From the NCBI GenBank assembly GCA_025336685.1, contig GCA_025336685.1_4717.1: DNA of 64,000 nucleotides; one strand, given 5' to 3'. The position numbers were made by a program, and so were the translations under genes. The notes beneath the pieces were generated by a model. The model was not told the origin of the DNA. It searched no databases and was given only the letters and a program-made list of their open reading frames with translations. Shown piece by piece: positions 5,502 to 55,770 of this stretch; position 1 is the stretch's first letter, and every line of letters starts with the position of its first letter. The DNA is from Escherichia coli (GTDB lineage: Bacteria > Pseudomonadota > Gammaproteobacteria > Enterobacterales > Enterobacteriaceae).

Positions 5502-7088
5502 TTATTTTTTTCCTCTTAAATTTACTACATGTTCATTTAATCGAACAACTAATTGCACAAGCTGCTGACGGATATCTGCTGGGCAAAGCATCAATCCTTT
5601 ACGATCAGCTGGGACTTTCTCAAGGATTTCCGGACCTGCTGCGGAAACATCCCAATCCCATTCACAAAACGCATCAGCCACCATGTTAATACCGACAACC
5701 GGTAAAGTTGTACGTTCATCTTCATACATGGCATGCGGATACAATTTATTGACGGTAATGACCTCCTGTGGTTTTAACTGATGGATAATCTGGTAAACGT
5801 CGTCGCGTTTAACCTGGATACCTACGGTCAGCGCAGCCAGTTGAGGAAAACCCCAATGGTCTAATAAGCACGCTGCGATTGCTAACGCTTTTGCCTGATG
5901 TACGGCTTCAATCGGTGATAGACTTCTCGCTGGAAGATGACTATCAAGCAACCATTGTGCCAATGCTCGGCATCCACGGTTGATTGGTTTTAACTCAATG
6001 CTGTCATCATGTTTAGCGTAGGTGTATCCGTCGTAACGTTTTGCGATACGCGCATACATGTCTTCAACTTTACCGTAAGGTGCTGTTTCGTCGACGTCAT
6101 GCAACACCCGTTCCATCTGGGTAAGATACGCGATATCAAGGATGAGTACGCGTGGTGAACGTTTATCTTTCACCATCAACGCATCAATCACGCCTTGACT
6201 GTCTTCATCTTGCGCATTCCCTCGCGGCGTTTTCTCGCGAATCGGTCCGCTGAAACGTCGTTCCGTACAAAGGTTATTCACATAGCTAAAGATCAACGTT
6301 ACCAGGTGCGTACAACTCACCAACACTCCATCTTTAACGACAGGCTGTACGGCTTGGTCCAAATCGCGTACTGCGAGACGGCGAACGATGGCTTGTGAAC
6401 GCAACCAACCAGGTACTTTCTCTGTCGACATGTAATCCACCGTCATCGACAGCGTGATCTTTTTATCGCCTGTCTGTGCACGGATATAATCTTCCAGTCG
6501 GTCGTAAGCAGCGATATCATGAATGCGTGTTTTATACATCAACGACATAGCCACTTCTTCTTTACGTACCGTCCCGTACGTTTTCCCTGCGTCAATCAGA
6601 AACTCCGCCCAAATCGGCACCATCAGCCGGACGTAGATCGCTAACGCCGTTAACTCAACGTAATCGTTTCGTAAATAGGTTTTCTCAGGTATGTCATCCT
6701 CACCTAATGTTGTTTTCATGTCTGGCGGTAATTTTACCCAACCTGGGGTATTACACAACGCCAGAATCTCTTCATAGACGATCGGTTTGTAAATTTCACC
6801 GACGGCGCGGCTCAACTCCTCCATTTGTTGCTGTGGAGCAATGTAGTTATCCATCGCTTCACGTGCTTTAACGAACCCTTCGAAGATGTCGTCGATTCGA
6901 CGTGGGTTCTTTTGTTCTATCCAAGCGAGATACTTATTAATCTCTCGCATCTGATTGCTAGCCATATCCCCATCAATCTTGATGTAGCCTTGGCCTGAAA
7001 ATTCCACGGCACGTCCGTCACGATGTTTGATGAGATAGTGATCCAGCTTTTCTTTGCCTTGCGTCGTAATGACGGGCACAATGTGCAT
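5502..7088 (-). CDS. hypothetical protein (528 aa), first gene of a promoter-driven operon
   Basis: Long ORF about 96 nt downstream of a TATATTAC-type promoter motif. Confidence 0.55.
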   Translation of the reverse strand: MHIVPVITTQGKEKLDHYLIKHRDGRAVEFSGQGYIKIDGDMASNQMREINKYLAWIEQKNPRRIDDIFEGFVKAREAMDNYIAPQQQMEELSRAVGEIYKPIVYEEILALCNTPGWVKLPPDMKTTLGEDDIPEKTYLRNDYVELTALAIYVRLMVPIWAEFLIDAGKTYGTVRKEEVAMSLMYKTRIHDIAAYDRLEDYIRAQTGDKKITLSMTVDYMSTEKVPGWLRSQAIVRRLAVRDLDQAVQPVVKDGVLVSCTHLVTLIFSYVNNLCTERRFSGPIREKTPRGNAQDEDSQGVIDALMVKDKRSPRVLILDIAYLTQMERVLHDVDETAPYGKVEDMYARIAKRYDGYTYAKHDDSIELKPINRGCRALAQWLLDSHLPARSLSPIEAVHQAKALAIAACLLDHWGFPQLAALTVGIQVKRDDVYQIIHQLKPQEVITVNKLYPHAMYEDERTTLPVVGINMVADAFCEWDWDVSAAGPEILEKVPADRKGLMLCPADIRQQLVQLVVRLNEHVVNLRGKK

Positions 7089-7182
7089 AACAACCTCTTT
7101 TCGCGGTTCCCTGTTGAAACGTCTTCTGTGACGTCTACCACAAAGGTAACATTTATGTCGCCTCTATGACTTTGTTCATAGA

Positions 7183-7200
7183 GGTAATATAAGCGTGAAT
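7183..7200 (-). promoter_or_regulatory. phage promoter, minus-strand core TATATTAC with extended consensus (attcacgCTTATATTACC)
   Basis: Plus-strand gtaatata at 7184-7191. One of five sites sharing ttcaSg-N-YTATATTACC with an A/T-rich upstream flank, all upstream of minus-strand genes. Core matches the early promoter element reported for phiKZ-like phages. Confidence 0.6.
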
Positions 7201-12486: not shown

Positions 12487-13302
12487 TTAACGTGTTCTCC
12501 TATCACGATGCGTATACGACTGAAGACCGATGTCCATATGCGGTAACGTCAGCGTCTGCCAGATCTGTCGTGCATAGCGATCGAGCGTATGATCGTCAGT
12601 AACACAATCGACCGGTTCGATGAGGTGCGTCGTATACTGGCTTTTCTCGGAGAAAGGTTCTATGTTAGCGGTGTCCCCTAATCCGCTTTTCACCGTGAAG
12701 ACGAGACGAGTAATTATCATCGCCTTATGCTGCTGTTCATTATAGCGAAGGCTACGATATACGGCATAGCTCCCCCCTTTTAAGCTTCGGGTATAACGAA
12801 GGTCGGAGGTCGTCTCGGAAATCTGATACAGCATCCAATCCAACGTATCTCGCCAGTACGCATCATCCACATCAGGAACCGTGATACCATAACGCGTAGG
12901 CAGCAGTTCTAAAAGCAATTTATAAAGTCCTCGACGCAGACCATGCTCTTCTGTTTCAGACAAACCGTGTCCAACGTAACGTGAGATACGCGTACGTAAA
13001 TACGTACGGATGAACATATTTGTCATCAGTGATTTCGCGCTACTACTGGTATCCTCAAAGCGATCAACACTGAAACTCGTTTCAATCGGCTGCCCATTAA
13101 AGTACAATGCGGCAACATACATCGCATTACTGCTATCTCGTTCAATGTTTAAACGCCCGCAGATATTGGCTGCGTCGTTCATGGTAAATTCTAACTTATC
13201 GTGTTCGATACGATAGATAATATCCTCTTGGGTTGCTAAGCTCGCAATGCGACGATAACCCGGAGAAGTGCGTTTTACACCCATGATTGTCCTCGTTTTC
13301 AA
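12487..13302 (-). CDS. hypothetical protein (271 aa)
   Basis: ORF; no motif recognised. Confidence 0.5.
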   Translation of the reverse strand: MKTRTIMGVKRTSPGYRRIASLATQEDIIYRIEHDKLEFTMNDAANICGRLNIERDSSNAMYVAALYFNGQPIETSFSVDRFEDTSSSAKSLMTNMFIRTYLRTRISRYVGHGLSETEEHGLRRGLYKLLLELLPTRYGITVPDVDDAYWRDTLDWMLYQISETTSDLRYTRSLKGGSYAVYRSLRYNEQQHKAMIITRLVFTVKSGLGDTANIEPFSEKSQYTTHLIEPVDCVTDDHTLDRYARQIWQTLTLPHMDIGLQSYTHRDRRTR

Positions 13303-13325
13303 TTTAAGATTACATGCAGCATAAA

Positions 13326-14019: not shown

Positions 14020-14257
14020 TTAGCAATGGTTGTTAGTTGCTTCTATTTCATCAAGATACGGTTCTACGTCATCGCCCTCCACGAATTCGTTGAACCAACA
14101 GTCAATGGTAGAAATAACCGGTGACTGGTGTTCACATTTCTTAGATACCTTAAAAGGCACGTTATTATCCATCATACCGAGTTCGGGTCGAAAACGCCCG
14201 AAATGTTTCGCAGTCCAAATGTCTGGGACGATATGGTTGTTCATCGCGTCCCCATCG
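14020..14257 (-). CDS. RNA polymerase beta-prime-like subunit, exon 2 (begins DGDAMNNHIVP...)
   Basis: The reading frame of listed ORF 14020-14244 extends upstream to ...C GAT GGG GAC GCG ATG, encoding DGDAMNNHIVPD (cf. beta-prime NADFDGDQMAVHVP). Joining to exon 1 (ending ...GAC TT) restores NADF-DGD in frame. Confidence 0.7.
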
Positions 14258-15669
14258 CTTCAGTTTAATTTGGTCGAACGTATTCCAATTTCAATCCATG
14301 CCAATCACCGCCTTTACTAATAGCGGTACTTATCGTAGTCGGATGCACTTTATGTTCTTCAGCAAGGGCGAATCTATCAGGATAGACTTTATGTGTACCA
14401 TCCTCAAACACCACCTTTACTGGGAACCTTTGTAATCCACCAGTTTTTGGTCTAGGCTCTTTAGGAATATATTTACATTCGTTCACATCGCCAGGATAAT
14501 TCCTTGTCCACCATGCTTTCCAACCGTTTCTGGAAAACATCTTATCTCCATGACATAAGCTATGACTTAATGTCGCATAGCTCACTCCCACCATTGTTGC
14601 CGCCATTACGGTACTTTCCATGTGATACTTGTCTCCATCGGGCGATATTAAAACCAACCCGCCGTAAATAACATACGACTTACCGGCATCTTCGGATGTG
14701 AAACCGACAAATTCCATTCCGTGGGTAGCCGCATCGTAATATTTCATCAACGGCCATTGTCGTGTAGTACGGAACCATTTTGAAATCTGGGTGTGTGGGA
14801 TACCGTAACACTTAGCCGCATCGCGCATACTGTAATGTTCGGTTATCTCGCCAGTTCTCAAATCCTTTATCCATACTGTTTTAGCTTTCCAGTTCAAGCC
14901 CGTACGATAGGCATGGTACGTATTTTGGGATTGACTCGTCCATTCAAGATTATCCAAGCGGTTGTTATCTTTAACTCCGTCAAGATGGTTACCTACTAAC
15001 ATTGATCCCTCAGGCAGCATAGGTTTTTCACGAAAGGTGGATAAAACAACATGATGAGCTGCTATATCTCTACCTTCATGTCTGACCCTTACATATCCTA
15101 ATACGTTAGTTTTTCCTACTTCCTCTCCAGTATAGGCATCTATAATGACACCCTCCACAGAAGCGGCAAGTCCGGGATAATCTTTACAATGGTAAAATCC
15201 TGGGAATTTTGTCTCTCTAAGTTTCATCTTCTCTCCGCTATCGGCCAACAGAGAGAAAACGTTCCTCGGAGGCCGACGTTTTCAAATTAAACTACGTTAT
15301 CGACTATATCTTCATCCTCATTGCGAGGAGTCTCCCGTTTGGGTCTGTGTTTAACAGAGCCTACTCTACTCGACATCGCGTCTTTCGATAGTCTGTGAGC
15401 ACACATCTTAACGAACATTCGTGGACTCCTAAACAGGTGAACATTCTTGTTAAGATGCTTCGCTGCGGGTTATTCCCGTCCTACCTCTTTTACCATACCC
15501 AGTTCATTACGCTGGCCCTCATCTATGTCGCCACGATGAGTTGGTGTGTAGTCCGATTACAGAAACTTCCCGTCAATTAGAGAGTTTTAACTATGTTCCT
15601 GTTACCAGAAACCCGACTCCGATGATATCAATAAATCAACGTAAGTTATTGATTTAATTGAAGAAACTG
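14258..15669 (-). mobile_element. group I intron (about 1.4 kb) with HNH endonuclease ORF in its 3' part, interrupting the beta-prime-like gene
   Basis: Minus-strand core elements: P/Q-like GGACGGGAATAACCCGCAGCG (plus 15461-15482), R-like GCTCACAGACTATCG (plus 15386-15399), S-like AAGATATAGTCG (plus 15301-15312). The 5' exon ends in U, the intron ends in G, and splicing yields a perfect NADFDGD. Confidence 0.75.
14265..15248 (-). CDS. intron-encoded HNH homing endonuclease
   Basis: HNH motif HHVVLSTF...VGNHLDGVKDNNRLDNLEWTSQSQN plus helix-turn-helix-like repeats (YGIPHTQISKWF, MVGVSYATLSHSL); sits inside the intron; TTG start with an in-frame ATG 7 codons downstream. Confidence 0.85.
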   Translation of the reverse strand: MADSGEKMKLRETKFPGFYHCKDYPGLAASVEGVIIDAYTGEEVGKTNVLGYVRVRHEGRDIAAHHVVLSTFREKPMLPEGSMLVGNHLDGVKDNNRLDNLEWTSQSQNTYHAYRTGLNWKAKTVWIKDLRTGEITEHYSMRDAAKCYGIPHTQISKWFRTTRQWPLMKYYDAATHGMEFVGFTSEDAGKSYVIYGGLVLISPDGDKYHMESTVMAATMVGVSYATLSHSLCHGDKMFSRNGWKAWWTRNYPGDVNECKYIPKEPRPKTGGLQRFPVKVVFEDGTHKVYPDRFALAEEHKVHPTTISTAISKGGDWHGLKLEYVRPN

Positions 15670-16925
15670 AAGTCGGCATTGTATCCCTTAAGGATCATCA
15701 CGCTTAACCCGATGGTGTTATCCTGCGGATCGCGTTTAACCTTGGTGATTTCAAGACATTGGTTACTGCTTCGGTCAAGTGATGGGTTTCGAACAAAACC
15801 ACACACAATCCCATCGAACGGTGTATCGGCAATAAGCTCATCGTGTAGCTCGCTCATCATCGGGTGGTAATTACGGACATGTTCCGCAACGAACGCACGT
15901 GCTGCTCTTGGTGAATAACCACGATGGAATAACTTGGATTGGATGTGTTCTTTATTGGTTAATGTAAATGGCGCGTATGGGAAATGCAGATGATAATAAC
16001 GATGGTTCGCTGTTATCGAACTGATTACGGTACGCGTGGTGAATGGGTGTAATGTACCTAATATGTTTTTACGCGTGATACCTTTCTTCTTACCGATGAA
16101 CTCATCGAAAATCGCCGAGTGGTACTGCAGCAGCTTCAGTTGTACTTTCGCCATCCAGTTTTCTTTCTTTCTGGCGCTCAAAGGTGTTGTTGGGTGATAG
16201 ATACTATTCAATGTGCCGATAGCATCGATCGCACCTTCCATTTTGCTATCTGCATAACGGCCGGTCGGTGTATTTTCGATAACGAACATCATGGCCGCAG
16301 GAAAGCTGATATACTGGCTGAAGAACTTATCACGATGGATACGGATGAATTCTCGTAGCGTGTCAACTTTCTCTGTGTTCTTCGGTCCACGTAACGTAGG
16401 TCCTTTATACAAGATCTCCATGATGCGATCGAAGTTCTGTATAAAGCTATTTACGCCACGTCGTATCCCGAATACATCGAATTGCTGCTCCAGATAGTTC
16501 TTGAGTTCGATGGGTCGTTTTACATTTGGACGGTAACTGGCATCAATGAGCCACGTCATCGTTTCGAAGCTTTTGATATTCAACTCGCTTGCCAGCACGA
16601 GATGGACCAACGGGTTAATGAACGCATCGATTCCTTCAGGGACACGCGCCCAGACCGTCGAACGAATCTCCTGTTCTGCTGGGTAGGTCACAACCGTTTT
16701 ACAGTTTGGACACACCGTGCCGAGCAGCTCACCACGATTGTAAAAACCGCATCCACATTGCGGTGTGATATCCAACGTATCGCTGGAGTAAACACGGGTG
16801 ATAAAACTGTTTAATTTCTTCTTCTCTTCGACGACTTTTGTATCGTAATCGTTCAACAAAATCGGCGTAAAGGGAAGTTCTGCGAGCTGTCTATCGAAAC
16901 TCACGATATCGAGCATGATGGCCAT
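15670..16925 (-). CDS. RNA polymerase beta-prime-like subunit, exon 1 (zinc-finger N-terminus through NADF)
   Basis: CGCGFYNRGELLGTVCPNCKTVV matches the beta-prime zinc-binding motif (E. coli [23 protein letters not shown]); GKKKGITRKNILGTLHPFTTRTVIS matches [24 protein letters not shown]; the listed ORF ends ...KGYNADF followed by SFFN-stop, which is the start of the intron. Confidence 0.8.
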
Positions 16926-16967
16926 GGGACATCTCCTACAAATGAAAAAGAACGTTAGGACGTATAA

Positions 16968-16991
16968 GGGAGGGAGGTTGCCCTCCCTCCC
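16968..16991. terminator. strong GC hairpin GGGAGGGAGG-loop-CCTCCCTCCC downstream of the 17018-18913 gene
   Basis: 10-bp perfect stem with a 4-nt loop, 27 nt after the stop codon, followed on the minus strand by a T-rich stretch. Confidence 0.55.
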
Positions 16992-17017
16992 GTCAGATTA
17001 CATCGAACGTTCTTCCA

Positions 17018-18913
17018 TTAGAACAGGTTGAATGCCCCACCCATGTTGTTACCGCCAACATTCGGACGATCGCTACGTGCATAGATGTTGCCGGAGATGT
17101 TACCCAGACCACGAGCACGTGCTGCTGTGTTACCACGAACAGCGGTACCTGCCAGATGCTGGATGTTCTCAGGACGGATGGTGAAGCCAGCTTCGGCAGC
17201 CGCTTCAATCAATGCCGCAAGCGCATTCGGTTCGAAATCGTAACGCATTGCCCAACCGGTTTGTTCCCAGCTACCAGACAGAACGCGATCGATGATTTCG
17301 TGACGAGCAACAACACGCTGAGACATCGACATATCGGTACGGTCGAAGCTGTCTTCCCAAGCTTCTACGGTATCCGGGTTAGTGATGTTCATCATGTACA
17401 GATCGTCCATATCACGAATATCGTGACGGTGGCCATCCTGGTGGTTGTAGTGACCCAGCGGGATACGGTTACCGGTAGCGTACACTAACGGCTGGCCGTA
17501 TTGATATTTCTTGCTGAAGCAACCCAGGGTGGTATCATCGAATGCACGATAGAGTGCTTTATAGCCTTCGGAGATTTCTTGAACTTTACCGTCAACGTTG
17601 CCCGTAAAGATCTTCTCAGCTGCAGGGATCATACGCAGCAACCAGCTATATTCACCTTCTTCCGGTACATCGATAGAAATCAGCAGAGACGGATACAGTA
17701 CCTGTTGCAGGAACTTGTAAATCTGCTCGTTGGTTTGAGTAGACAGATCCAGCGGTGCGGTAACTTCCGGATCCAGTACCATTGCCAGAGCACCCGGGTT
17801 ATGAGGACCGATGCCACGAGCAGCGTTGCTGATTAAAGACTGTGCCCACGCCATACCGCTGTTCAGCGTAGCGATGGTACCAATCAGACCTAACACGAAA
17901 GTGTTCGGAGTGAACGCATCCAGCTCCAGCGGGTAAGCGCTGGTCATCACGTAACGCGGCTGGTATTGTACAGTCGGCGGTACCGGATAACCGTTAACCA
18001 GAACAGGACCTTGGTTGAAGGTCGGGTTCTGCGGGCTGTAGGTCAGGTCAATGTAACCAGTGGTTGCGACCAGGCGCTGTTGACTATCGTAATCGCTCAT
18101 CGCTTGACGGATACGGTTAGAGATAGTTACAGTGATGTCAGAACGTACTGGGTTACCGACGATATCGCTGTCCTGCATACCGCTGGTGTTGTACTGAACG
18201 CTGCTGATCGGCTGATCGCTTGCCATCATGCCCAGGTTGAACTGCGGCAGGCCCAGTTTATCGCCGAGACGGATTTCGATCGCGGTTTGGATTGCGTTAT
18301 CTGCAGCAGACAACAGGGTGGTTGCCAGATGTGCAGATTCAGCGGTGATTTCATTGGTCACCACAGCCAGACCGGCGATACGAACAGTACCATTAGCCTT
18401 ACCACCAATAGCCGCATACATTGCCGCCATGACTTCGTTGATGAACGTGCCGTTCAGGTTATCAACCCAGGTACGTGGTACCAGAATGTTACCATGCGGA
18501 CCTTGTTCTTCACGACGCGGCAGCGGAGCCAAACCGGCAACCAGCGGAAGCACATAACCGAAGAAGTGGTTATGGTCACCAACTTTTGCACCGCTCATAA
18601 CAACCAGGGTCGGATACGGTACACTGTACTGGTTAGGATCGACGGTCACCATGATGAAGTCGTCTTTGAATCCTTTATCTTCCAGTTCTTTTTCCATCAG
18701 ACGGCGGAGATTCAGTACCTGCTCGGAGCCAGTATTACGGCTAATACGACGGCTCAGTGTACGGTTGATCGTACGCATCGTATGAGTTACTTTAGGCTGG
18801 CCAGCAAAATCTGCAGCGGTTTCCAGCGCCTCATCAGCACGTTGTGCGGTGCGGGTTTCAGCTGCACGAATTTCTACATTATCGTTACCGTTATTACGTA
18901 CGTCTAAGCCCAT
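17018..18913 (-). CDS. chmA: candidate phage nucleus shell protein (chimallin-like), 631 aa; alternative: major virion protein
   Basis: Size typical of chimallin; stand-alone gene bracketed by a TATATTAC promoter (73 nt upstream) and a strong hairpin; flexible N-terminal region and G/N-rich C-terminal tail ending ...GGNNMGGAFNLF; PhuZ present in the same genome. No direct sequence confirmation. Confidence 0.4.
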   Translation of the reverse strand: MGLDVRNNGNDNVEIRAAETRTAQRADEALETAADFAGQPKVTHTMRTINRTLSRRISRNTGSEQVLNLRRLMEKELEDKGFKDDFIMVTVDPNQYSVPYPTLVVMSGAKVGDHNHFFGYVLPLVAGLAPLPRREEQGPHGNILVPRTWVDNLNGTFINEVMAAMYAAIGGKANGTVRIAGLAVVTNEITAESAHLATTLLSAADNAIQTAIEIRLGDKLGLPQFNLGMMASDQPISSVQYNTSGMQDSDIVGNPVRSDITVTISNRIRQAMSDYDSQQRLVATTGYIDLTYSPQNPTFNQGPVLVNGYPVPPTVQYQPRYVMTSAYPLELDAFTPNTFVLGLIGTIATLNSGMAWAQSLISNAARGIGPHNPGALAMVLDPEVTAPLDLSTQTNEQIYKFLQQVLYPSLLISIDVPEEGEYSWLLRMIPAAEKIFTGNVDGKVQEISEGYKALYRAFDDTTLGCFSKKYQYGQPLVYATGNRIPLGHYNHQDGHRHDIRDMDDLYMMNITNPDTVEAWEDSFDRTDMSMSQRVVARHEIIDRVLSGSWEQTGWAMRYDFEPNALAALIEAAAEAGFTIRPENIQHLAGTAVRGNTAARARGLGNISGNIYARSDRPNVGGNNMGGAFNLF

Positions 18914-18984
18914 TTGGGATTCCTCTTTTCTTAACCTTTATTAAATGACGTCATTGAATCAGCTTCTACTCGCTCATTCACCTA

Positions 18985-19002
18985 GGTAATATAACCCTGA
19001 AA
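18985..19002 (-). promoter_or_regulatory. phage promoter, minus-strand tttcaggGTTATATTACC
   Basis: Plus-strand gtaatata at 18986-18993, about 73 nt upstream of the 17018-18913 start; matches the extended consensus. Confidence 0.6.
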
Positions 19003-19167
19003 TTTTTTTCAATATTGGTGTAACCGCATTGAACGATATAAACCCCTAGGCGAACGCTGCCGAGAAGCAACATTCTTTCTACATATAATCAGGATATGTC
19101 TGTAAACTTTTACTTCTCTTATTGAGAGTAATGTCATATCCGTTTACCATCTTCTTACGGAGTTCGT

Positions 19168-20262
19168 ATGTTTCGTGTTTTAAATAACCTCCCGCGAACA
19201 TCATCGGGTGTGCAACCCGTCCCTCAGAAAGACTATCTAATACGCGAAGTTCAAAGAAACCTACAGACAATCCAGAACCACTATCAGGGTTTTACCTTCG
19301 CGGTTCAGAGCGATCACATCCTTGCGTTGCTGCTCGCACAGCTCCCTATGAGATACGACATCTCAGTACAAACTTACTACGACATGATTCTCGATCTTAC
19401 TCCAGAATTGGGTAATCGTGTTAAGTTGACAACATCAAGATACGCGGGTAAGTTATTCGACGGAGCCTTCTATCCGGGATTGCATGAAGCTATTATCGCA
19501 ACCGGTGAAAGTCGTCTTATTTCACGTGACGTTCTTGACAACTGGCGTAATTGGTCACCAGTTAGAATCGTGACGCACCCATACGCAAATCTTCGTTACA
19601 TTCCTCTTCACCAAAAGCAGGTTGAGGAAGGACGGGGGTTTGCGGTCATTATGGTTGATGTACCTTTATTAGCGCTACAGTATCGAATGTGGTCTTTGGT
19701 CATGGGGCATAACGTCGATGGTAAATGGGTGGTTAAAGAACCGGTTACAAGCTTCCTTGCGAGTTTTCCGTTGGTTAACGCATTATACTCACACAACGAT
19801 GTTGTCGTACGCAACCGCTGTTTGTGGGTATCTCCGGCTAAGAATCCACTCAAATCACCAATTTACGTTAACGACCTTGATAACGTATTCGACCAAGTCG
19901 CTCTGTCCGTACAGCATCATTTATTACGAAGAAGACGAAGCTACACCGACATGCTTAAACAGATACCGAGTTTATACGGGGATCAGTACCAAGCAACCCG
20001 AATGGGCTACACCGTTGATCTTCGACAAACCCGATGGGCAAGGGATCTGGGTTGTCTGTCATTATGGCAGCAACTCGTCACGTTGCAAAACGTATCTGAA
20101 AGCGTCGGATTTAGCAGTCAAATCGATAACGACCTGTACCGTGCTGCCGACCGGAGTCTAAAAGAAGGTAACTGGGAATCCTCTCCGTTACCTGGCGATT
20201 TAAGACGTGAAGTTATTGCACAGGTTGCCGACCTCTTAAAAATTCTTCCTGCTGGTGCATAA
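19168..20262 (+). CDS. hypothetical protein (364 aa)
   Basis: Plus-strand ORF convergent with the 20329-22482 gene; no motif recognised. Confidence 0.5.
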   Translation: MFRVLNNLPRTSSGVQPVPQKDYLIREVQRNLQTIQNHYQGFTFAVQSDHILALLLAQLPMRYDISVQTYYDMILDLTPELGNRVKLTTSRYAGKLFDGAFYPGLHEAIIATGESRLISRDVLDNWRNWSPVRIVTHPYANLRYIPLHQKQVEEGRGFAVIMVDVPLLALQYRMWSLVMGHNVDGKWVVKEPVTSFLASFPLVNALYSHNDVVVRNRCLWVSPAKNPLKSPIYVNDLDNVFDQVALSVQHHLLRRRRSYTDMLKQIPSLYGDQYQATRMGYTVDLRQTRWARDLGCLSLWQQLVTLQNVSESVGFSSQIDNDLYRAADRSLKEGNWESSPLPGDLRREVIAQVADLLKILPAGA

Positions 20263-26258: not shown

Positions 26259-26558
26259 TCATTTTCTCCCTCTTCGAATACCACCGATACCTCTTCGATC
26301 CAAGACGTCCCAAGCACGCTTTATTTCTTCCTCCCGTTCCTGATTCCAATCGTTAAATCGTTTTCTTATTTTATCCCACCACTCTCCCATGCTTTCTCCT
26401 ACACGGCATAAAAGCCTGCCCCGAAGGACAGGCTCGATAGAACTTAATAACCATCCAATTTCAATGAAGGATGGTTGACGATATGTGCGTGTTTTGCTGG
26501 GTCGTATGGTTGATATGGAAAATAACCATGCCACTGACGACCTTGGCATTTCGTACAT
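26259..26558 (-). CDS. hypothetical small protein (99 aa)
   Basis: ORF; overlaps 26444-26644, so only one of the two may be real. Confidence 0.25.
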   Translation of the reverse strand: MYEMPRSSVAWLFSISTIRPSKTRTYRQPSFIEIGWLLSSIEPVLRGRLLCRVGESMGEWWDKIRKRFNDWNQEREEEIKRAWDVLDRRGIGGIRRGRK

Positions 26559-26644: not shown

Positions 26645-26826
26645 AGCGCATCTCCATTCACTTGAACTTTTTGGTTCGGTGTTAGAAAAGCAAGAAACCG
26701 CTGTTCTTCGCTTCCGCTACAGTTTCGTCACCAACTTTCGGTGCCTGTTGACGCGCGTTACGATGTTCGATGTAACGTTTCGCTTCGTCAGCGATTTGTT
26801 TGATAATACCCTAAACGATCCAGTAC

Positions 26827-27660
26827 TTAAAACAAACGACGTCGCTTCTGAATCAGGCTGCTTTCAGGTACAAAACCGTCACAGCTGTAAATAGCGTTAA
26901 CACCCATGACTTTAGTCGCGTCTTTCGGATAAAGCGTACAGAAAGCAATAGGACTATCGTTCTCTTTCGTCCAATCGTATCCCACGAACGTATTCAGTTC
27001 GGTGATCGTTGGTTCCAAACCGGTAACACGTGGATGGTTTAAGAAGTTTTCCAGGTCGGCGCTGTCAAGACGACGGTTCTCACCAGAAAACAGAACACAA
27101 AGCTGGCTAATAACAACCTGCACGTCCAGGTTGACATCCTGCTCCGATTTCCCATTTTCGCCATTCATGTGATAGCTAACAATCACCGGACGTTTCAATC
27201 CTTCTGCAGCTGCCATCAGTCCTTTAAAGGTACGATCGGCGTTGATCGTTTGACGCTCATCATCGAACGAGGCAACGATGCAACACACCACACGTTCACC
27301 GCGTTCCAGCAGGTTAGCAACCAACGCAGGACCTGCAACAGAACCTGAACCACCGCTCAGACTAAAGACCACGATATTAAATTTACCAGGCGTATGCTTA
27401 TTGAGAATGCCTGGGATTTGTGAACAGATCAGTTCAGCGTTCTCATCACGCTTCTTACCAGAACCGTCTAACTCACGACCCGCCGCATCTTTAAAGATGT
27501 AGATATGATCGTCGTCCAGTGCGCTATCGCGTAGGTTAGCCCGGCTGGTATCAACATACGTCATGCTGTGTAATCCTTTCGCGACTTCGCCTTCAAACGC
27601 TGAGCCGATTTCGCCACCACAACCACCAACAGCCCAAATATGTACTTGGTTCTCTTGCAT
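26827..27660 (-). CDS. phuZ: PhuZ-like phage tubulin/FtsZ-family GTPase
   Basis: N-terminal glycine loop IWAVGGCGGEIG and tubulin signature FSLSGGSGSVAGPALV (cf. PhuZ SLGGGSGSV / tubulin GGGTGSG); size and spacing fit the tubulin fold. Confidence 0.8.
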   Translation of the reverse strand: MQENQVHIWAVGGCGGEIGSAFEGEVAKGLHSMTYVDTSRANLRDSALDDDHIYIFKDAAGRELDGSGKKRDENAELICSQIPGILNKHTPGKFNIVVFSLSGGSGSVAGPALVANLLERGERVVCCIVASFDDERQTINADRTFKGLMAAAEGLKRPVIVSYHMNGENGKSEQDVNLDVQVVISQLCVLFSGENRRLDSADLENFLNHPRVTGLEPTITELNTFVGYDWTKENDSPIAFCTLYPKDATKVMGVNAIYSCDGFVPESSLIQKRRRLF

Positions 27661-32872: not shown

Positions 32873-33420
32873 CTTGTAATCCTTAATTTACCTGAATGAA
32901 TTATCGTTGATGGGTCTACGACGCGACCGTATTTCGCATTGCGTAATACACGATGCCCGAAGAAGTCCGCGGTTTCCAAAACAACCGTGTAACAACCCAG
33001 CTGATGTTGGTGTCCCCAAAACCGTTCAATGGGGATCCAGCATGGCGTCATGCCTTTGTGTCGCCAATCCGTAACACAGCCGAATTCAGCAAACTGTTCA
33101 GTAAACCACTCGTCAATATCGGTATCCGTAAAGAGAAACACGTGGTTTTTAACCAGATAAGCGAACCCTGGATAAAAAAGCTGAGGGTCATCCGGGTCAC
33201 GAAGGTAAACACGAAGTTTGTCTAGCGTACCCTCGATAACGATCGTATCGGGTAATCCCGGCGGTGTGAACCGAAGTTGGAAGTTATCCTCGTTTGCCGA
33301 GGCGTTAACCAAATACCCCAATTGAAGGGGTCGATGCAATTCGAAAAGGTTAAACGTTAATGCATATTCGATATACTCTAATCCTATATTCATGTCTGAC
33401 CTATGTGGTATGGACGGCAT
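32869..33420 (-). CDS. hypothetical protein (183 aa)
   Basis: ORF; 4-nt start/stop overlap with the downstream gene. Confidence 0.5.
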   Translation of the reverse strand: MPSIPHRSDMNIGLEYIEYALTFNLFELHRPLQLGYLVNASANEDNFQLRFTPPGLPDTIVIEGTLDKLRVYLRDPDDPQLFYPGFAYLVKNHVFLFTDTDIDEWFTEQFAEFGCVTDWRHKGMTPCWIPIERFWGHQHQLGCYTVVLETADFFGHRVLRNAKYGRVVDPSTIIHSGKLRITR

Positions 33421-33525
33421 TGCATTGCCTTCCGCGAGTGTAATCAGGAAGGTAATGTAGGTTTATTTTAATCTCCATTTCGCGATGATATGACAGTCTT
33501 TATTACGTTTACCATCTGAGGGAGC

Positions 33526-34770
33526 ATGCTCATGTCTTCTATTTTACAGGTGTTTAATGCGCATGCGGAAGGCATTGACATCGACGAGTATTTTGTTAAT
33601 CAGGTTATCCGTTACGCGACACGCTTCCGCACGCAAGACCAAGAACACATGCGTTTTTTCGGTGGGGTTCTGTTAGGTGTGCAGAAAATCCGATTCACAA
33701 CAAGACATAACGATATGTGGTTTTCCGACGTCTTGATGATGGATGAAGAAAGCTTACGACGCGATTTGAGTAAACTGCCCTTTTACAATACGCAGACCAA
33801 CCGTGTTGCCTCAAACGCATTTAACCTAAGTTGCTGTTGGTTGCTTTATGCGATTTTCCATAGCAAACAAATCAAAAAAGAAAAGGTTCGTGAGGCCGGG
33901 ATGCTTGCTGCAATGCAAGTCCTTCATTATAAATTCATTTGCGGTCTGGTAGCACGACGTTATCCTTATAACGCTGATCCGGCTATCGCTATTAAGGCGT
34001 ACGATGAGTTAACGCTCAAATCAGGTATCAAACGCATGAATAGCTGGAATGAGTACATTGACGAACGCTGTAATGCCATCATTGCGCGTAATAGCACACA
34101 TTTCAGTCGCTGGTCAACCCTGGAACCAGATAGTGTCGCCGAACGTTTTGTACGTGATGTGAATACCGGAATCCGTAAAGTTATCAACCGTATCACCGAT
34201 ACGTACTACGCGATGTACGAAGAAGGTAAGAAGATAGGCACGTCCTCTCAAACCGTAGAATTAGACGATGGTCTTGCTGTTCGCGATATTAAACGCAATG
34301 AAACCACTTACCGTCAATATCTGTTCGAAATCGCTTATGACCGGACAAGTTTCGTTAAACGCGAACTCATGGTCGTCATCCTCGACGTGCATCATACTAC
34401 CAATCTCCTATCCCTTGAGCGAGCGTTAAGCTATATCAGCGCTAACGTAGAGCGGCCAACAAAAGACGGAAAGCAGGTCTCTCAGATGTTGAGGCTTGTA
34501 ATGGAACATGCTATCGAGTATATCATCTTGAATAAGGTTGATATGCGCGATCTTACGTTCTTATTCTACATGCGTAACGTGTATACGTCTAACCGCACTA
34601 GCAACCCGAAACTGTTAGAGCTGCGTAAACTCGGCTCTGAAGTCATTAAGAAAGCAACCAACGCGAGAAACGACGCTGAAGCTGCAGCGACACGCACAGG
34701 TGTCTTTCTGTATATCCTGCTTCGGGTGTTTAGCCGCAACTATTACGTTCGTCGCGCGATGTCTCGCTAA
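33526..34770 (+). CDS. hypothetical protein (414 aa)
   Basis: Plus-strand ORF with GAGGGAG RBS; terminator hairpin about 140 nt downstream. Confidence 0.5.
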   Translation: MLMSSILQVFNAHAEGIDIDEYFVNQVIRYATRFRTQDQEHMRFFGGVLLGVQKIRFTTRHNDMWFSDVLMMDEESLRRDLSKLPFYNTQTNRVASNAFNLSCCWLLYAIFHSKQIKKEKVREAGMLAAMQVLHYKFICGLVARRYPYNADPAIAIKAYDELTLKSGIKRMNSWNEYIDERCNAIIARNSTHFSRWSTLEPDSVAERFVRDVNTGIRKVINRITDTYYAMYEEGKKIGTSSQTVELDDGLAVRDIKRNETTYRQYLFEIAYDRTSFVKRELMVVILDVHHTTNLLSLERALSYISANVERPTKDGKQVSQMLRLVMEHAIEYIILNKVDMRDLTFLFYMRNVYTSNRTSNPKLLELRKLGSEVIKKATNARNDAEAAATRTGVFLYILLRVFSRNYYVRRAMSR

Positions 34771-47627: not shown

Positions 47628-47749
47628 GTTAATACTCCAATTAGTTTTTTCGATCGATCAAAAGGATAAAATCAGAAGATTCTTTCTTCATAGGGAAAAC
47701 ACAAGTCGGTTAAGGTTTACTTCTTAAACTCCTTGCGTTCTATCAGTTA

Positions 47750-47767
47750 GGTAATATAGACCTCAAC
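47750..47767 (-). promoter_or_regulatory. phage promoter, minus-strand gttgaggTCTATATTACC
   Basis: Plus-strand gtaatata at 47751-47758; matches the extended consensus. Confidence 0.6.
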
Positions 47768-53031: not shown

Positions 53032-54255
53032 TTATTTAGCGTCGTTAAAGTAAATATCAACAGCTCGTTCCGTTGCGTAGAGGAGACCAAGATTCACAGT
53101 CCCAACCACTTCCGGTGAACCGATGATACGGTTAGCGATACTGGTGCCACTGAAGATAGCATCAAGGGTGTGCCCGTCTTCGGTTTTGTTCACACCATGA
53201 CCCACGGAAGAGACAACGGATTTCGCTTGTGCTGCGAAGGTACCCTTATCACCCATCCCCGCACCAAGGTCGTAACGCATGAAAATACGGATGGCGATCT
53301 GGTTCTCGCCTAACGGATTACCGTCTATTCTCACGTTACTGTTGTTGATACGCCCCGTCGTTGCTTCATTGAGTTTCAGTTCCTTGACGCGTTTAGCTCG
53401 CGCTTTATCTGCGTCACCGACGAGCGCCGCCATGGTTTCACTCATATCCTCAATCTGAGCGCGGTACAGCACATCGATCTGTACAACTTCACCATGAACG
53501 TCAGCACGTGGGTTATACTGACTCATACGACGTAATGCTTCAACGGCTTCCTGACTCTCATCACTCAGATCAGTTGCGATCGGTTCTTCCAGTGTTGCAA
53601 GAATAGTTCGAGGTTCAACATGATCGCCGATTTTTACGAGACCACGAATGTTGAGATGGGCGTCAACAATGAGCGTGCGGCTCTTAATCGATGGTGTTAC
53701 GAGACGATCGGCAAGATTGTCGAAGATATACGAACTGTCCTCGTGAGTCTCTGGAATATCCAGAATACCGACAAGAGACAGAACACCTGCGCGCCAAACA
53801 ACCTGACCTGGGTTCCACCAGTCGCGTTTAAAATAAAGACGATGGAAAACTACCACATCTTGATCCTTAACGCGATCCCCAACTTTATAATCGGTAATGA
53901 GGTCATGCGGATAATACTTACCTGGTCCTTTCCCGATTATCGTACCGAGTTGGAAAACCTCTTCTCCTAACTCTGGATCATCGTATTGTATCGTAAGCGC
54001 AGTTTTGGTGACCTTCTTCACAACACCATCGCCTTGGGCGGCAGCTGCGAAGAGTTTACCAACGCGATGCGCGATAACGGTCTCGCCACCAGTACGCCAT
54101 GGTTGTACATCGTAACCTTCAGCAGCAATCATGCGGTTGTGTTGGATGCCTATAAATACGAGACGCTTTGGCGGAATCCAGCAAAATACATTTACTGTGC
54201 GTCCGGATTGTTCAGATAAGGTCGTTAATCTTATCCCGGAGGCGATGATAGGCAC
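53032..54255 (-). CDS. RNA polymerase beta-like subunit, middle segment (probable 3' exon)
   Basis: [23 protein letters not shown] resembles beta [40 protein letters not shown]...[13 protein letters not shown] resembles GDKMAGRHGNKGVIS...GVPSRMNIGQILE. The listed start is GTG, and the frame stays open a few codons upstream, consistent with an exon. Confidence 0.6.
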   Translation of the reverse strand: [407 protein letters not shown]

Positions 54256-54483
54256 ACCGCCTCCCGCTTACGCTCTCACGTAAGAGCAGACTATATCACA
54301 TCTCGTCTTAGGCTTGTTTTCACAAGTCAAACGGTGCTTCTTCAGCACCTCAACGAGAGTTCACTTCTTCCCAGCGCATCCAGCGCCATTCTCTTATCCA
54401 AGGAGAATGCCTCACTCGAGGGGTACAGGGGGATGAATCCCTTAGTCGTTGAACCGTCACCCTAGAACGTTTCACAACGATCC

Positions 54484-55695
54484 TTAGGCGATTGGCTGCG
54501 GATTACCCTTGGCCTGCGGACCACGAACTTTTGTCGCGGTCAACTCTTCATTTTTAAAGCCTGCTTTACGAGCAATACGTCTCGCTTCTCGCACGTCTAA
54601 CGTTTCCGTTTCCGCTTTGGCTGAAGGCAGCATTGGGCGTCCTCGCAATTCAATGAATCTCGTCCATACGTCACCGTATAAACGGACCCGCTCTTTGTAA
54701 ACAGAATAGTAAATATAACGTTTTCCGTCAGGGAATTTAGTCATCCCATCGGACTTCAAACGGTAATTGAGTAACGTAGTAGATATACCCATTTCTTCGG
54801 CGCAATCAACGGCTGAAAGGTACAATAGCGGTACATCATTTTCAGGAATGACGACAATAGCACGTTTGTTGGTTGTCTTCTCCAACTCCAGGATACTATC
54901 TTCGACTTCCCGCCACGGCGTCTCATCAGTAACCCATTTAACTTGATAACAGCCATTAACGACAGGTTGGTTCTTGTCGTTAACGTACATCGACGCAGTG
55001 GGTAACTTAACACCAATGTGATTAGCGAATTCAGTCAATGATTCGAAAAGATGAATCTCTTTTGTTATCGTTGACCTTGCAATCACGCCCTTACTCCCCG
55101 TATCCGTCAACGTTGCTAACTCGTATTTGGTAGGAATACGCCACGGTTCATCGCCGTAATCTTTGCGGTACTGCTTACGTTCAGGAAACGCTCGCTGTTT
55201 ACCTCTATAGACACGATGATGAATGAAGTCGATATTCACACCAAGATCGCGTGCCGCTTCCGTCATGGATGGATATCTAGTTACAACACCGGTGTCAACA
55301 TCACGAACCTGAATAGGTTTACCGTAAGCAGCAATAGAACGTTTACGCATGTTCATAATGCGGGCATGCTGATTGTTCTCTTTCTGTGTAACCCATTCAA
55401 GATTGTCATTCTCTGTGTTACCGTCGGGATCAAGGTAGTTATTAAGTCTGTTGCCGTCCTTGTGGTTCACATGGAGCAAATGCGCATCATCGATGTTACG
55501 GAACGTTAACATTAGAAGTCTATGCATGGAACGGTAAACCAATGTTCCATCGTGACCTCGAAACGAATAACGATAATACCCAGCAATGATGATGGGCAAA
55601 TATTCAAACTTCGATTCCTTGTTACGCAATGTTCCATCTATGGATATCTCCAGGAACGGGAATTCCGGTACGGTCTTAAATACCTTCTCACTCAT
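54484..55695 (-). CDS. HNH homing endonuclease (intron-associated)
   Basis: HNH motif HRLLMLTF...HVNHKDGNRLNNYLDPDGNTENDNLEWVTQKENNQHA; helix-turn-helix-like repeats; located between the two beta-like segments. Confidence 0.85.
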   Translation of the reverse strand: MSEKVFKTVPEFPFLEISIDGTLRNKESKFEYLPIIIAGYYRYSFRGHDGTLVYRSMHRLLMLTFRNIDDAHLLHVNHKDGNRLNNYLDPDGNTENDNLEWVTQKENNQHARIMNMRKRSIAAYGKPIQVRDVDTGVVTRYPSMTEAARDLGVNIDFIHHRVYRGKQRAFPERKQYRKDYGDEPWRIPTKYELATLTDTGSKGVIARSTITKEIHLFESLTEFANHIGVKLPTASMYVNDKNQPVVNGCYQVKWVTDETPWREVEDSILELEKTTNKRAIVVIPENDVPLLYLSAVDCAEEMGISTTLLNYRLKSDGMTKFPDGKRYIYYSVYKERVRLYGDVWTRFIELRGRPMLPSAKAETETLDVREARRIARKAGFKNEELTATKVRGPQAKGNPQPIA

Positions 55696-55735
55696 TGACT
55701 ATATTCCTCTTGTGCAGTGATATTAACTACACTTT

Positions 55736-55750
55736 CGTAATATAGCCTTA
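55736..55750 (-). promoter_or_regulatory. phage promoter, minus-strand attaaggCTATATTACG, inside the putative intron upstream of the HNH ORF
   Basis: Plus-strand gtaatata at 55737-55744, about 42 nt upstream of the HNH start. Confidence 0.55.
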
Positions 55751-55770
55751 ATTCTGTTTACATTGAAGCC

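Follow-up and report, generated by a model that had tools for sequence, protein, structure and literature searches.

The window analysed here, a 64,000-nt stretch of DNA from the Escherichia coli isolate assembly GCA_025336685.1, carries on its minus strand, at positions 17018..18913, a long open reading frame (ORF) flanked by a promoter-like motif and a GC-rich hairpin. A preliminary description of the locus considered the product of this ORF to be a candidate chimallin (ChmA), the shell protein of the phage nucleus, with a major virion protein as the alternative, which raises the questions of what the ORF encodes, whether the gene is functional, and how it is expressed. The ORF begins with ATG, ends with TAA, and encodes a 631-aa protein that is indeed acidic, with a pI of 5.17 and 69 Asp and Glu residues versus 51 Lys and Arg residues. 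A GAGGAA ribosome-binding site is located at 18920-18925, 6 nt 5' of the ATG.

A search against PDB sequences revealed an end-to-end match to the solved chimallin of Escherichia phage Goslar (7sqt_A; E = 0, 1384 bits, 610 of 631 residues identical), together with matches to phiPA3 PhuN and to the chimallins of phiKZ and 201phi2-1 (E values from 4e-21 to 1e-11). The comparison to the phiKZ, 201phi2-1 and Goslar proteins, proposed earlier as a check of the candidate identity, has thus given a match in all three cases. In Pfam, the protein matched PF25677 (Chimallin_Phikzvirus) over residues 20-595 with a score of 97.6 bits, the cutoff being 27, and no other family was found in that search, in agreement with the reported lack of an enzymatic motif. 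Residues 19-629 matched PHROG 4795, 'nuclear shell protein' (E = 1e-54), and tblastn identified chimallin homologs in 106 phage records, with jumbo-sized genomes; where named, these homologs are annotated as 'nuclear shell protein' or 'chimallin'. The size and acidity of the protein, the lack of enzymatic motifs and the strong expression signals, generic features when taken alone, would also suit a capsid or other structural protein of the virion. However, every database match is a chimallin, no capsid or virion family was matched in Pfam (E<=1), PHROGs (E<=0.01) or PDB sequences (E<=1), and the 96.7%-identical Goslar protein has been placed in the nuclear shell by localisation and has a solved lattice structure (PMC9891218, PMC9365700), so that the probability left to a major virion protein is negligible. 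We conclude, with a probability of about 0.95, that the ORF at 17018..18913 encodes chimallin, the main phage-nucleus shell protein of a jumbo phage that is Goslar-like and a member of the family Chimalliviridae; its identity and fold family are established at the level of sequence. The chimallin found here is already known, in that its family, structure and role are well established.

The closest characterised relative is the Goslar chimallin itself (YP_009820873, HOV27_gp246, designated gp189 in the Goslar papers; PDB 7SQT/7SQU/7SQV). The two proteins have the same length of 631 aa and 96.7% amino acid identity (21 substitutions per 631 residues), and their genes have the same genomic position and an identical promoter motif and hairpin, while the sources differ, a bacterial isolate assembly in the present case and a phage isolate in the case of Goslar. 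In the chimallin fold, the N-terminal domain is of alpha/beta type, and the C-terminal domain is GNAT-like but lacks the acetyltransferase catalytic residues (PMC9365700). This two-domain core is assigned to the present protein by homology, over all 631 residues, to the fold-defining cryo-EM chain 7sqt_A, and the 96.7% identity to a solved chain settles the fold.

The segments that connect protomers in the published structure are preserved as well. Residues 1-75, which include the N-terminal segment (NTS), are identical to those of Goslar chimallin. The Gly/Asn-rich C-terminal tail with a hydrophobic tip, noticed previously, corresponds to the last 53 residues, among which are 9 Gly and 8 Asn, with GGAFNLF as the terminal sequence; only two sites differ from Goslar in this region (M596T and V621G), and the tip is kept. 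The suggestion that both tails act as inter-protomer links agrees with the published NTS, CTS1 and CTS2, described together with the chimallin structure and pore size (PMC9365700). By analogy with the Goslar ortholog, protomers of about 70 kDa would form tetramers held by the NTS, and these tetramers would join into a flexible square lattice via CTS1 and CTS2, each docked on an adjacent protomer. The resulting shell would surround the replicating phage DNA and keep out ribosomes and host nucleases, with pores of about 1.4 nm through which small molecules could pass. In Goslar-infected cells, GFP-ChmA forms a halo around DNA (PMC9891218); assembly and localisation are experimental for the Goslar ortholog, and for the present allele they may be assumed by homology.

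The whole window is collinear with positions 153,639-218,641 of the Escherichia phage Goslar genome at about 95% nucleotide identity, and the chimallin gene occupies the place of Goslar HOV27_gp246, 'nuclear shell protein'. The preliminary description presented it as a stand-alone gene, which fits its upstream side, where a divergent gene of 364 aa begins 254 nt away (19168..20262, plus strand). This neighbour is an ortholog of Goslar HOV27_gp245 (99.2% amino acid identity) and matches weakly a virion structural protein family (PHROG 3938, 14481). On the downstream side the statement does not hold, since a gene on the same strand starts only 92 nt beyond chimallin. It constitutes the first exon for a non-virion RNA polymerase beta' subunit homologous to phiKZ gp55 (15654..16925, minus strand; 7ogp_A PHIKZ055, E = 4e-62; PHROG 2987). 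The 449-aa variants of this polymerase ORF in related genomes were considered as intron-less forms and rejected, since beyond the shared ...ILKG junction they continue with another sequence. A divergent family B DNA polymerase is also encoded, and the order of DNA polymerase, divergent gene, chimallin, and RNA polymerase subunit with HNH endonuclease is also that of phiKZ gp50 to gp56.1.

The PhuZ tubulin gene, expected about 8 kb away, is present at a distance of 7.8 kb (26682..27660, minus strand; 9pm9_C, 1.7e-179; PHIKZ039, 1.3e-28; PHROG 4733), but it is frameshifted and truncated in this sequence: as assembled, three indels amounting to a net -2 nt lead to a stop after 277 of 326 codons, leaving a 277-aa ORF at 26827..27660. 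PhuZ is intact in all seven related genomes compared, and the frameshift is private to the present sequence. A local assembly error is a possible cause. Widespread sequence error was also considered as a reading of the frameshift and was rejected, since, of the 58 Goslar genes used for comparison, only 2 have frame-breaking indels in the window. The genomic context of a member of Chimalliviridae is nevertheless recognisable from the collinearity with Goslar, the gp55-type RNA polymerase subunit, the PhuZ gene, albeit frameshifted, and the phiKZ-like gene module.

The origin of the sequence from an E. coli isolate assembly and the broken PhuZ gene could suggest that the chimallin gene is a decaying remnant or an assembly artefact that yields no working shell protein. 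Against this, the chimallin gene is intact and has a dN/dS of 0.10 relative to Goslar, 44 contigs carry the identical protein, only the two genes mentioned among the 58 compared carry frame-breaking indels, and a viable phage has a collinear genome across the whole region; we regard a non-functional remnant as very improbable. The low dN/dS, the identical NTS and the nearly identical C-terminal segment suggest that chimallin function is retained. An antisense ORF of 313 aa (17966..18907, plus strand) was dismissed, as it is in the minus-strand frame that the substitutions relative to Goslar occupy third codon positions.

The 44 public contigs carrying the exact protein belong to E. coli and Shigella isolate assemblies and are 235-260 kb in size, and on them the protein is labelled 'hypothetical protein'; its 90% cluster includes Salmonella entries too. 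A search of complete E. coli genomes and PLSDB plasmids gave no match, and therefore this phage type is not a replicon in the finished genomes there. Goslar-like phages in bacterial assemblies have been named 'persistent virulent phages' or 'BAPS', and two papers describe the phages and their chimallin; 237 Goslarvirus genomes have been reported, and 59 of 60 Goslar-like genomes were reported to have a chimallin more than 90% similar to that of Goslar. Compared with the Goslar-like phages of bacterial assemblies, the present genome shows no difference at the chimallin gene and stands alone in its PhuZ frameshift. The chimallins of Pseudomonas phages (phiKZ gp54, 201phi2-1 gp105, and phiPA3 PhuN) are members of the same family with about 24% identity to the present protein. 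Their genes are likewise located beside a gp55-type RNA polymerase subunit with an HNH endonuclease and have in common with the present gene the TATATTAC early-promoter core. The differences include the gap between chimallin and the downstream gene, 92 nt here versus 394 nt in phiKZ, and the CTS2, which in Goslar-type chimallins is reported to be shorter than in those of Pseudomonas phages and to make other contacts (PMC9365700).

Concerning expression, the promoter motif upstream of the gene was found as described, in the form of TATATTAC on the minus strand with its 3' end 72 nt from the ATG. It is part of an early-promoter-like element (18979..19013, minus strand) consisting of the A-rich tract ATTGAAAAAAATTTCAGGGT, followed by TATATTAC (18986-18993), CTAGG, and TG (18979-18980). 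By itself, the octamer shows no significant enrichment in the window, with 5 copies versus 2.0 expected and at least 5 in 8 of 100 shuffles. All five copies are located on the minus strand upstream of ORFs and have in common the extension TATATTACNNNNNTG and an A-rich upstream tract. For the extended pattern with at most one mismatch, the window contains 9 matches versus 4.2 expected, a number reached in none of 100 shuffles. The promoter reading relies on how the extended pattern is oriented, placed and conserved, and on the pattern itself, rather than on the octamer count. The element is identical in Goslar and invariant in 12 genomes, and TATATTAC with its flanks closely resembles the 201phi2-1 consensus ...TTTRARR_BTATATTACDWHDGTG; the same octamer is the core of the phiKZ promoter and of the 201phi2-1 consensus (PMC7058600 Table 2). 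Early motifs of jumbo phages are centred near -10 (PMC7598289), and phiKZ gp54 has its primary start site at an early promoter (PMC8244752). The TG at 18979-18980 is the predicted transcription start region, about 66 nt 5' of the ATG, which would leave a putative 5' untranslated region about 65 nt long (18914..18978, minus strand) holding the GAGGAA site and a TGACGTCA palindrome detected by the inverted-repeat search; this region has one substitution relative to Goslar. A 20-nt element adjoining another TATATTAC site has no second copy in the window. A consensus promoter and terminator scan gave no excess over shuffles, but it is built for sigma-70 promoters and canonical terminators and says little for a phage with its own RNA polymerases.

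At the opposite end of the gene, a compound hairpin begins 3 nt past the stop codon (16948..17014, minus strand), representing a putative terminator or attenuator. Its core is the previously noted 10-bp GC hairpin, GGGAGGGAGG / CCTCCCTCCC, whose arms are 100% complementary; this inner stem (16968-16977 / 16982-16991) has 10 GC pairs and a 4-nt loop, GCAA on the mRNA strand. It is enclosed by an outer stem of 9 bp (16948-16956 / 17006-17014), beyond which a T-rich run on the mRNA strand, TTTTTCATTT, extends over approximately 16939-16950. The compound structure has a predicted folding energy of -41.3 kcal/mol (z = -5.4), and none of 200 shuffled sequences was as stable. The inner stem is directly followed by TTATACG, and the hairpin escaped the consensus terminator scan because no T-run directly follows this stem. 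The compound hairpin is 100% identical to that of Goslar, without a variable column in 12 genomes. Most likely, it is predicted to end or attenuate the chimallin transcript.

The conservation of the noncoding flanks contrasts with that of the coding sequence. Relative to Goslar, the 5' flank is 98.4% identical (4 of 254 nt differ) and the 3' flank 97.8% identical (2 of 92 nt differ), versus 87.3% identity at the third codon positions of chimallin. Among the 12 genomes, variable columns number 6 of 254 in the 5' flank and 2 of 92 in the 3' flank, versus 121 of 632 third positions. Both flanks are under constraint, being far more conserved than synonymous sites.

These features can be read in two ways. 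Chimallin could be the first gene of an operon running into the RNA polymerase beta' gene, with the hairpin acting as an RNA-stabilising or partial attenuation element. The phiKZ gp55 homolog on the same strand is only 92 nt downstream, the gp54-gp55 order is kept in phiKZ, where dRNA-seq placed gp54 within a six-gene operon (PMC8244752), the TATATTAC motif is absent between the chimallin and polymerase genes, and the inner stem lacks a T-run. On the other hand, the very stable hairpin (-41 kcal/mol), with TTTTTCATTT just after its outer stem, would be consistent with termination, the need for chimallin would probably far exceed that for the polymerase subunit, and an unrecognised middle or late promoter could serve the polymerase gene. 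We give the operon a substantial chance, somewhat short of even, and consider the chimallin gene a putative stand-alone transcription unit. Strictly monocistronic and early-only expression is doubtful, since phiKZ gp54 is part of the six-gene operon and has an additional secondary start at a middle promoter (PMC8244752).

For a stand-alone unit, the following model could be proposed from the sequence signals. Chimallin would be transcribed early, probably by the injected virion RNA polymerase, and the phiKZ-type early promoter, whose core is TATATTAC, would direct initiation to the conserved TG about 66 nt 5' of the start codon. The hairpin would then end or attenuate the transcript, leading to chimallin in large amounts relative to the downstream RNA polymerase subunit. 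Promoter use, timing and termination in this model are predictions; for 201phi2-1, gp105 has been described as 'abundant and early-expressed'. Possibly, the invariant compound hairpin serves as a dedicated attenuator by which the proportion between chimallin and the RNA polymerase subunit is set.

Relative to Goslar chimallin, the 21 substitutions cluster in three patches, at residues 76-90, 436-445 and 561-566. Each patch occurs in two alternative multi-residue versions, which reassort among Goslar-like genomes. One could hypothesise, although we consider it unlikely, that these patches represent surfaces of the shell subject to diversifying selection, exerted by a shell-targeting host factor or by phage partner proteins, candidates for the latter being proteins of import, mRNA export or capsid docking. 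Functional differences would then exist between natural alleles of chimallin.

The main value of these findings is the correct annotation of chimallin labelled 'hypothetical protein' in public E. coli, Shigella and Salmonella records. Beyond that, the conserved pair of putative promoter and hairpin offers an expression model open to testing in Goslar-type phages, a group with no transcript map that we could find. The naturally PhuZ-truncated genome may be useful if the frameshift is real, and the natural allele blocks of chimallin could guide mutagenesis of shell surfaces.

The ORF at 17018..18913 on the minus strand opens with ATG, runs for 631 codons and closes with TAA; the ribosome-binding site GAGGAA lies 6 nt upstream of the ATG. 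A search against Protein Data Bank sequences revealed a full-length match to chimallin of Escherichia phage vB_EcoM_Goslar (hereafter Goslar; 7sqt_A, E = 0, 1384 bits), a weaker match to PhuN of phiPA3 (3.9e-21), and matches to the chimallins of phiKZ and 201phi2-1 at about 1e-11. The sole Pfam match was PF25677, Chimallin_Phikzvirus (97.6 bits, cutoff 27), and the sole PHROGs match was phrog_4795, 'nuclear shell protein' (1e-54). The candidate chimallin proposed in the preliminary description is thus borne out by the full-length 7sqt_A match and by both families, while the major virion protein offered there as an alternative was ruled out, since no capsid or other virion family appeared among the Protein Data Bank, Pfam, and PHROGs matches. 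On sequence evidence, we assign the ORF to chimallin (ChmA) with a probability of about 0.95. Homologs were detected by tblastn in 106 of 50,697 phage records; these represent jumbo-sized genomes, the annotated ones carry the name 'nuclear shell protein' or 'chimallin', and all except Goslar show less than 30% identity to the window protein. Every other element described earlier, namely the ORF, the promoter octamer, the 10-bp hairpin, and the C-terminal tail, was found. The protein is acidic (pI 5.17; 69 Asp+Glu versus 51 Lys+Arg), and its C-terminal 53 residues include 9 Gly and 8 Asn, the final residues being GGAFNLF.

The entire window is collinear with the Goslar genome (NC_048170, 153,639 to 218,641), with about 95% nucleotide identity, and the ORF occupies the position of HOV27_gp246, 'nuclear shell protein'. 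The downstream gene on the same strand (15654..16925) is a homolog of phiKZ gp55 (7ogp_A, 4e-62), and its product is a non-virion RNA polymerase subunit. The gene order in phiKZ is the same as in the window: DNA polymerase gp50, opposite-strand gp52, chimallin gp54, gp55, HNH gp56, and gp56.1. Despite an identity of only about 24% between the two chimallins, this kept arrangement supports their orthology. Two other minus-strand genes differ from their Goslar counterparts by deletions: the gp236 ortholog (26259-26390) has lost 189 nt in frame, and the gp183 ortholog (12487-13322) has lost 1 nt at about gene nt 17, so that its start has likely moved to the TTG at 13302.

In vitro, Goslar chimallin assembles into tetramers and cubic 24-mers, and in infected cells into a square lattice, with pores about 1.4 nm wide; the NTS makes within-tetramer contacts, and CTS1 and CTS2 make between-tetramer contacts (PMC9365700). 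GFP-tagged Goslar ChmA appears as a halo around phage DNA (PMC9891218). The window and Goslar proteins are identical over residues 1-75 and show just two differences within the C-terminal 53 residues; therefore, the assembly elements of the window chimallin are intact. The 'hydrophobic tip' of the preliminary description is the extreme C-terminus, which is the CTS2 position by the numbering of 201phi2-1 chimallin (residues 622-631 of 631; PMC9365700). From the published work, the window chimallin would be expected to assemble as its near-identical Goslar ortholog does.

Upstream of the gene, the octamer TATATTAC is located at 18986-18993 on the coding strand, its 3' end lying 72 nt from the ATG. 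This sequence is listed as the phiKZ promoter and lies at the core of the consensus for 201phi2-1, TTTRARR_BTATATTACDWHDGTG (PMC7058600, Table 2); in jumbo phages, early motifs are AT-rich, with their centre near -10 (PMC7598289). Taken alone, the octamer shows no significant enrichment in the window (5 copies versus 2.0 expected). The five copies share the minus strand and a position upstream of an ORF, and all have an upstream A-rich tract and TG at +6/+7 (TATATTACNNNNNTG); with at most one mismatch, this pattern of 15 positions gave 9 matches in the window versus 4.2 expected, a count that no shuffle reached. Strand, position, flanks, and the extended-pattern count argue that the five copies are real sites. 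The copy at the chimallin gene probably serves as an early promoter read by the virion RNA polymerase, with a transcription start predicted near 18979. Another TATATTAC core, upstream of ORF 5502..7088, is directly followed by a 38-nt insertion relative to Goslar (7146-7183, minus strand), which contains a small hairpin, CTCTATGA...TCATAGAG, and has a TTACCT direct repeat on both sides. In Goslar, at about 226,688, a TATATTAC site is likewise followed by a similar stretch with a hairpin, and no second copy of the element was found in the window; this could be a small mobile element placed at the 5' end of early transcripts.

At the gene's opposite flank, a perfect 10-bp inverted repeat, GGGAGGGAGG / CCTCCCTCCC (16968-16977 / 16982-16991, loop of 4 nt), forms the core of a more extensive structure, which starts 3 nt past the stop codon and folds at -41.3 kcal/mol (z = -5.4), with TTTTTCATTT after its outer stem. 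The terminator scan did not call the hairpin at 16968-16991, because the inner stem has no T-run after it. Conservation in both flanks far exceeds that of silent sites: the 254-nt 5' flank is 98.4% identical to Goslar and the 92-nt 3' flank 97.8%, with 6/254 and 2/92 columns variable across 12 genomes, none of them inside the promoter motif or the hairpin, while chimallin third codon positions are 87.3% identical to Goslar and 121 of 632 vary. The structure would act as a terminator or an attenuator downstream of the chimallin gene. The 'stand-alone' character ascribed to the gene is the weakest part of the finding, since phiKZ gp54 has two starts, an early primary and a middle secondary one, and has been assigned to a six-gene operon (PMC8244752). 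By this analogy, substantial read-through from chimallin into the downstream polymerase gene is a serious possibility, at somewhat under even odds. Intergenic identity between the window and Goslar ranges from 81% to 100% (mean 95.5%), reaching 100% at 33394-33531, 47628-47762, 26391-26443, and other regions; many non-coding stretches of the window thus seem more strongly constrained than silent sites.

The gp55-type gene is itself split by a group I intron (15281-15660, minus strand; Rfam RF00028, 50.3 bits), and an HNH endonuclease ORF (14265..15248) comes next (region 14247-15660). In phiKZ, the HNH gene gp56 is found at the equivalent spot after gp55. At the nucleotide level, the window HNH ORF does not match the HNH gene that Goslar has at this place, and in related genomes other sequences follow the common ...ILKG junction, giving ORFs of 434 and 449 aa; this site seems to hold differing intron and endonuclease cargo among genomes. 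The virion RNA polymerase beta gene (gp207 ortholog) is split between ...AADRDD and KRLVFIGIQ by a 1.6-kb insertion (54170-55787, minus strand) that Goslar does not have. Within it are a group I intron signal (54267-54709), which at 49.4 bits is slightly below the Rfam cutoff of 50, and an ORF of 403 aa (54484..55695) for a NUMOD1/HNH homing endonuclease; this ORF has its own TATATTAC motif (55737-55744), and the endonuclease is found in some Goslar-like genomes only (20-member cluster). The second annotated group I intron of Goslar, with the gp206 ORF (211,754-213,798, about 2 kb), is missing without trace at window 59163-59165. The window phage and Goslar therefore differ in the sites at which introns lie in their RNA polymerase genes.

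PhuZ, the phage tubulin reported earlier about 8 kb from chimallin, was located at 26682-27660 on the minus strand (9pm9_C, 1.7e-179; PHIKZ039, 1.3e-28), but its gene is frameshifted here. Three small indels relative to Goslar (net -2 nt), near codon 271 (near 26790-26850), end the ORF at 277 aa versus 326 codons, so that the C-terminal 49 residues are lost; the 42 codons that precede the old stop are still present in another frame, where every change is synonymous. Only one public contig (E. coli) has the truncated form, and all seven related genomes with an identical chimallin and coverage of the region encode intact 326-aa PhuZ. Either the mutation is very recent, or the frameshift is a local assembly error.

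The exact 631-aa chimallin is present in 44 public contigs from E. coli and Shigella assemblies, and the 249 members of its 90% cluster, many Salmonella serovars among them, are on contigs of 235-260 kb; in assemblies of all three, identical and near-identical proteins are always labelled 'hypothetical protein'. Neither complete E. coli genomes nor PLSDB yielded a match. Goslar-like phages in bacterial assemblies are already published in two papers: one found 59 such genomes, with chimallin more than 90% similar to that of Goslar in 59 of 60 Goslar-like genomes, Goslar counted (bioRxiv 10.1101/2024.12.31.630880), and a further study covered 237 Goslarvirus genomes (PMC12768965). The identification is correct, and the protein itself is already known.

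The window and Goslar chimallins differ by 21 substitutions (96.7% identity; dN 0.020, dS 0.19, dN/dS 0.10), which indicates purifying selection on chimallin, albeit weaker than on most of its neighbours; the ratio is several-fold higher than in most neighbouring core genes, many of which have values near 0.02-0.03. The substitutions are strongly clustered, with a median gap of 5.5 residues versus 20.8 expected, a degree of clustering that none of 20,000 permutations reached. Among 16 related sequences, each of three patches occurs as either of two alternative multi-residue blocks, and these blocks reassort between genomes: E-K-G-M-T in the window versus Y-T-R/Q-F-A at residues 76-90, F-N-D-K-Q versus Y-K-E-E-R at residues 436-445, and E-N-A versus D-L-Q at residues 561-566. 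This pattern looks like a mosaic produced by recombination between co-circulating chimallin alleles. With low probability, the patches could be shell surfaces under selection; their variation is the sole mildly novel lead provided by the chimallin gene.
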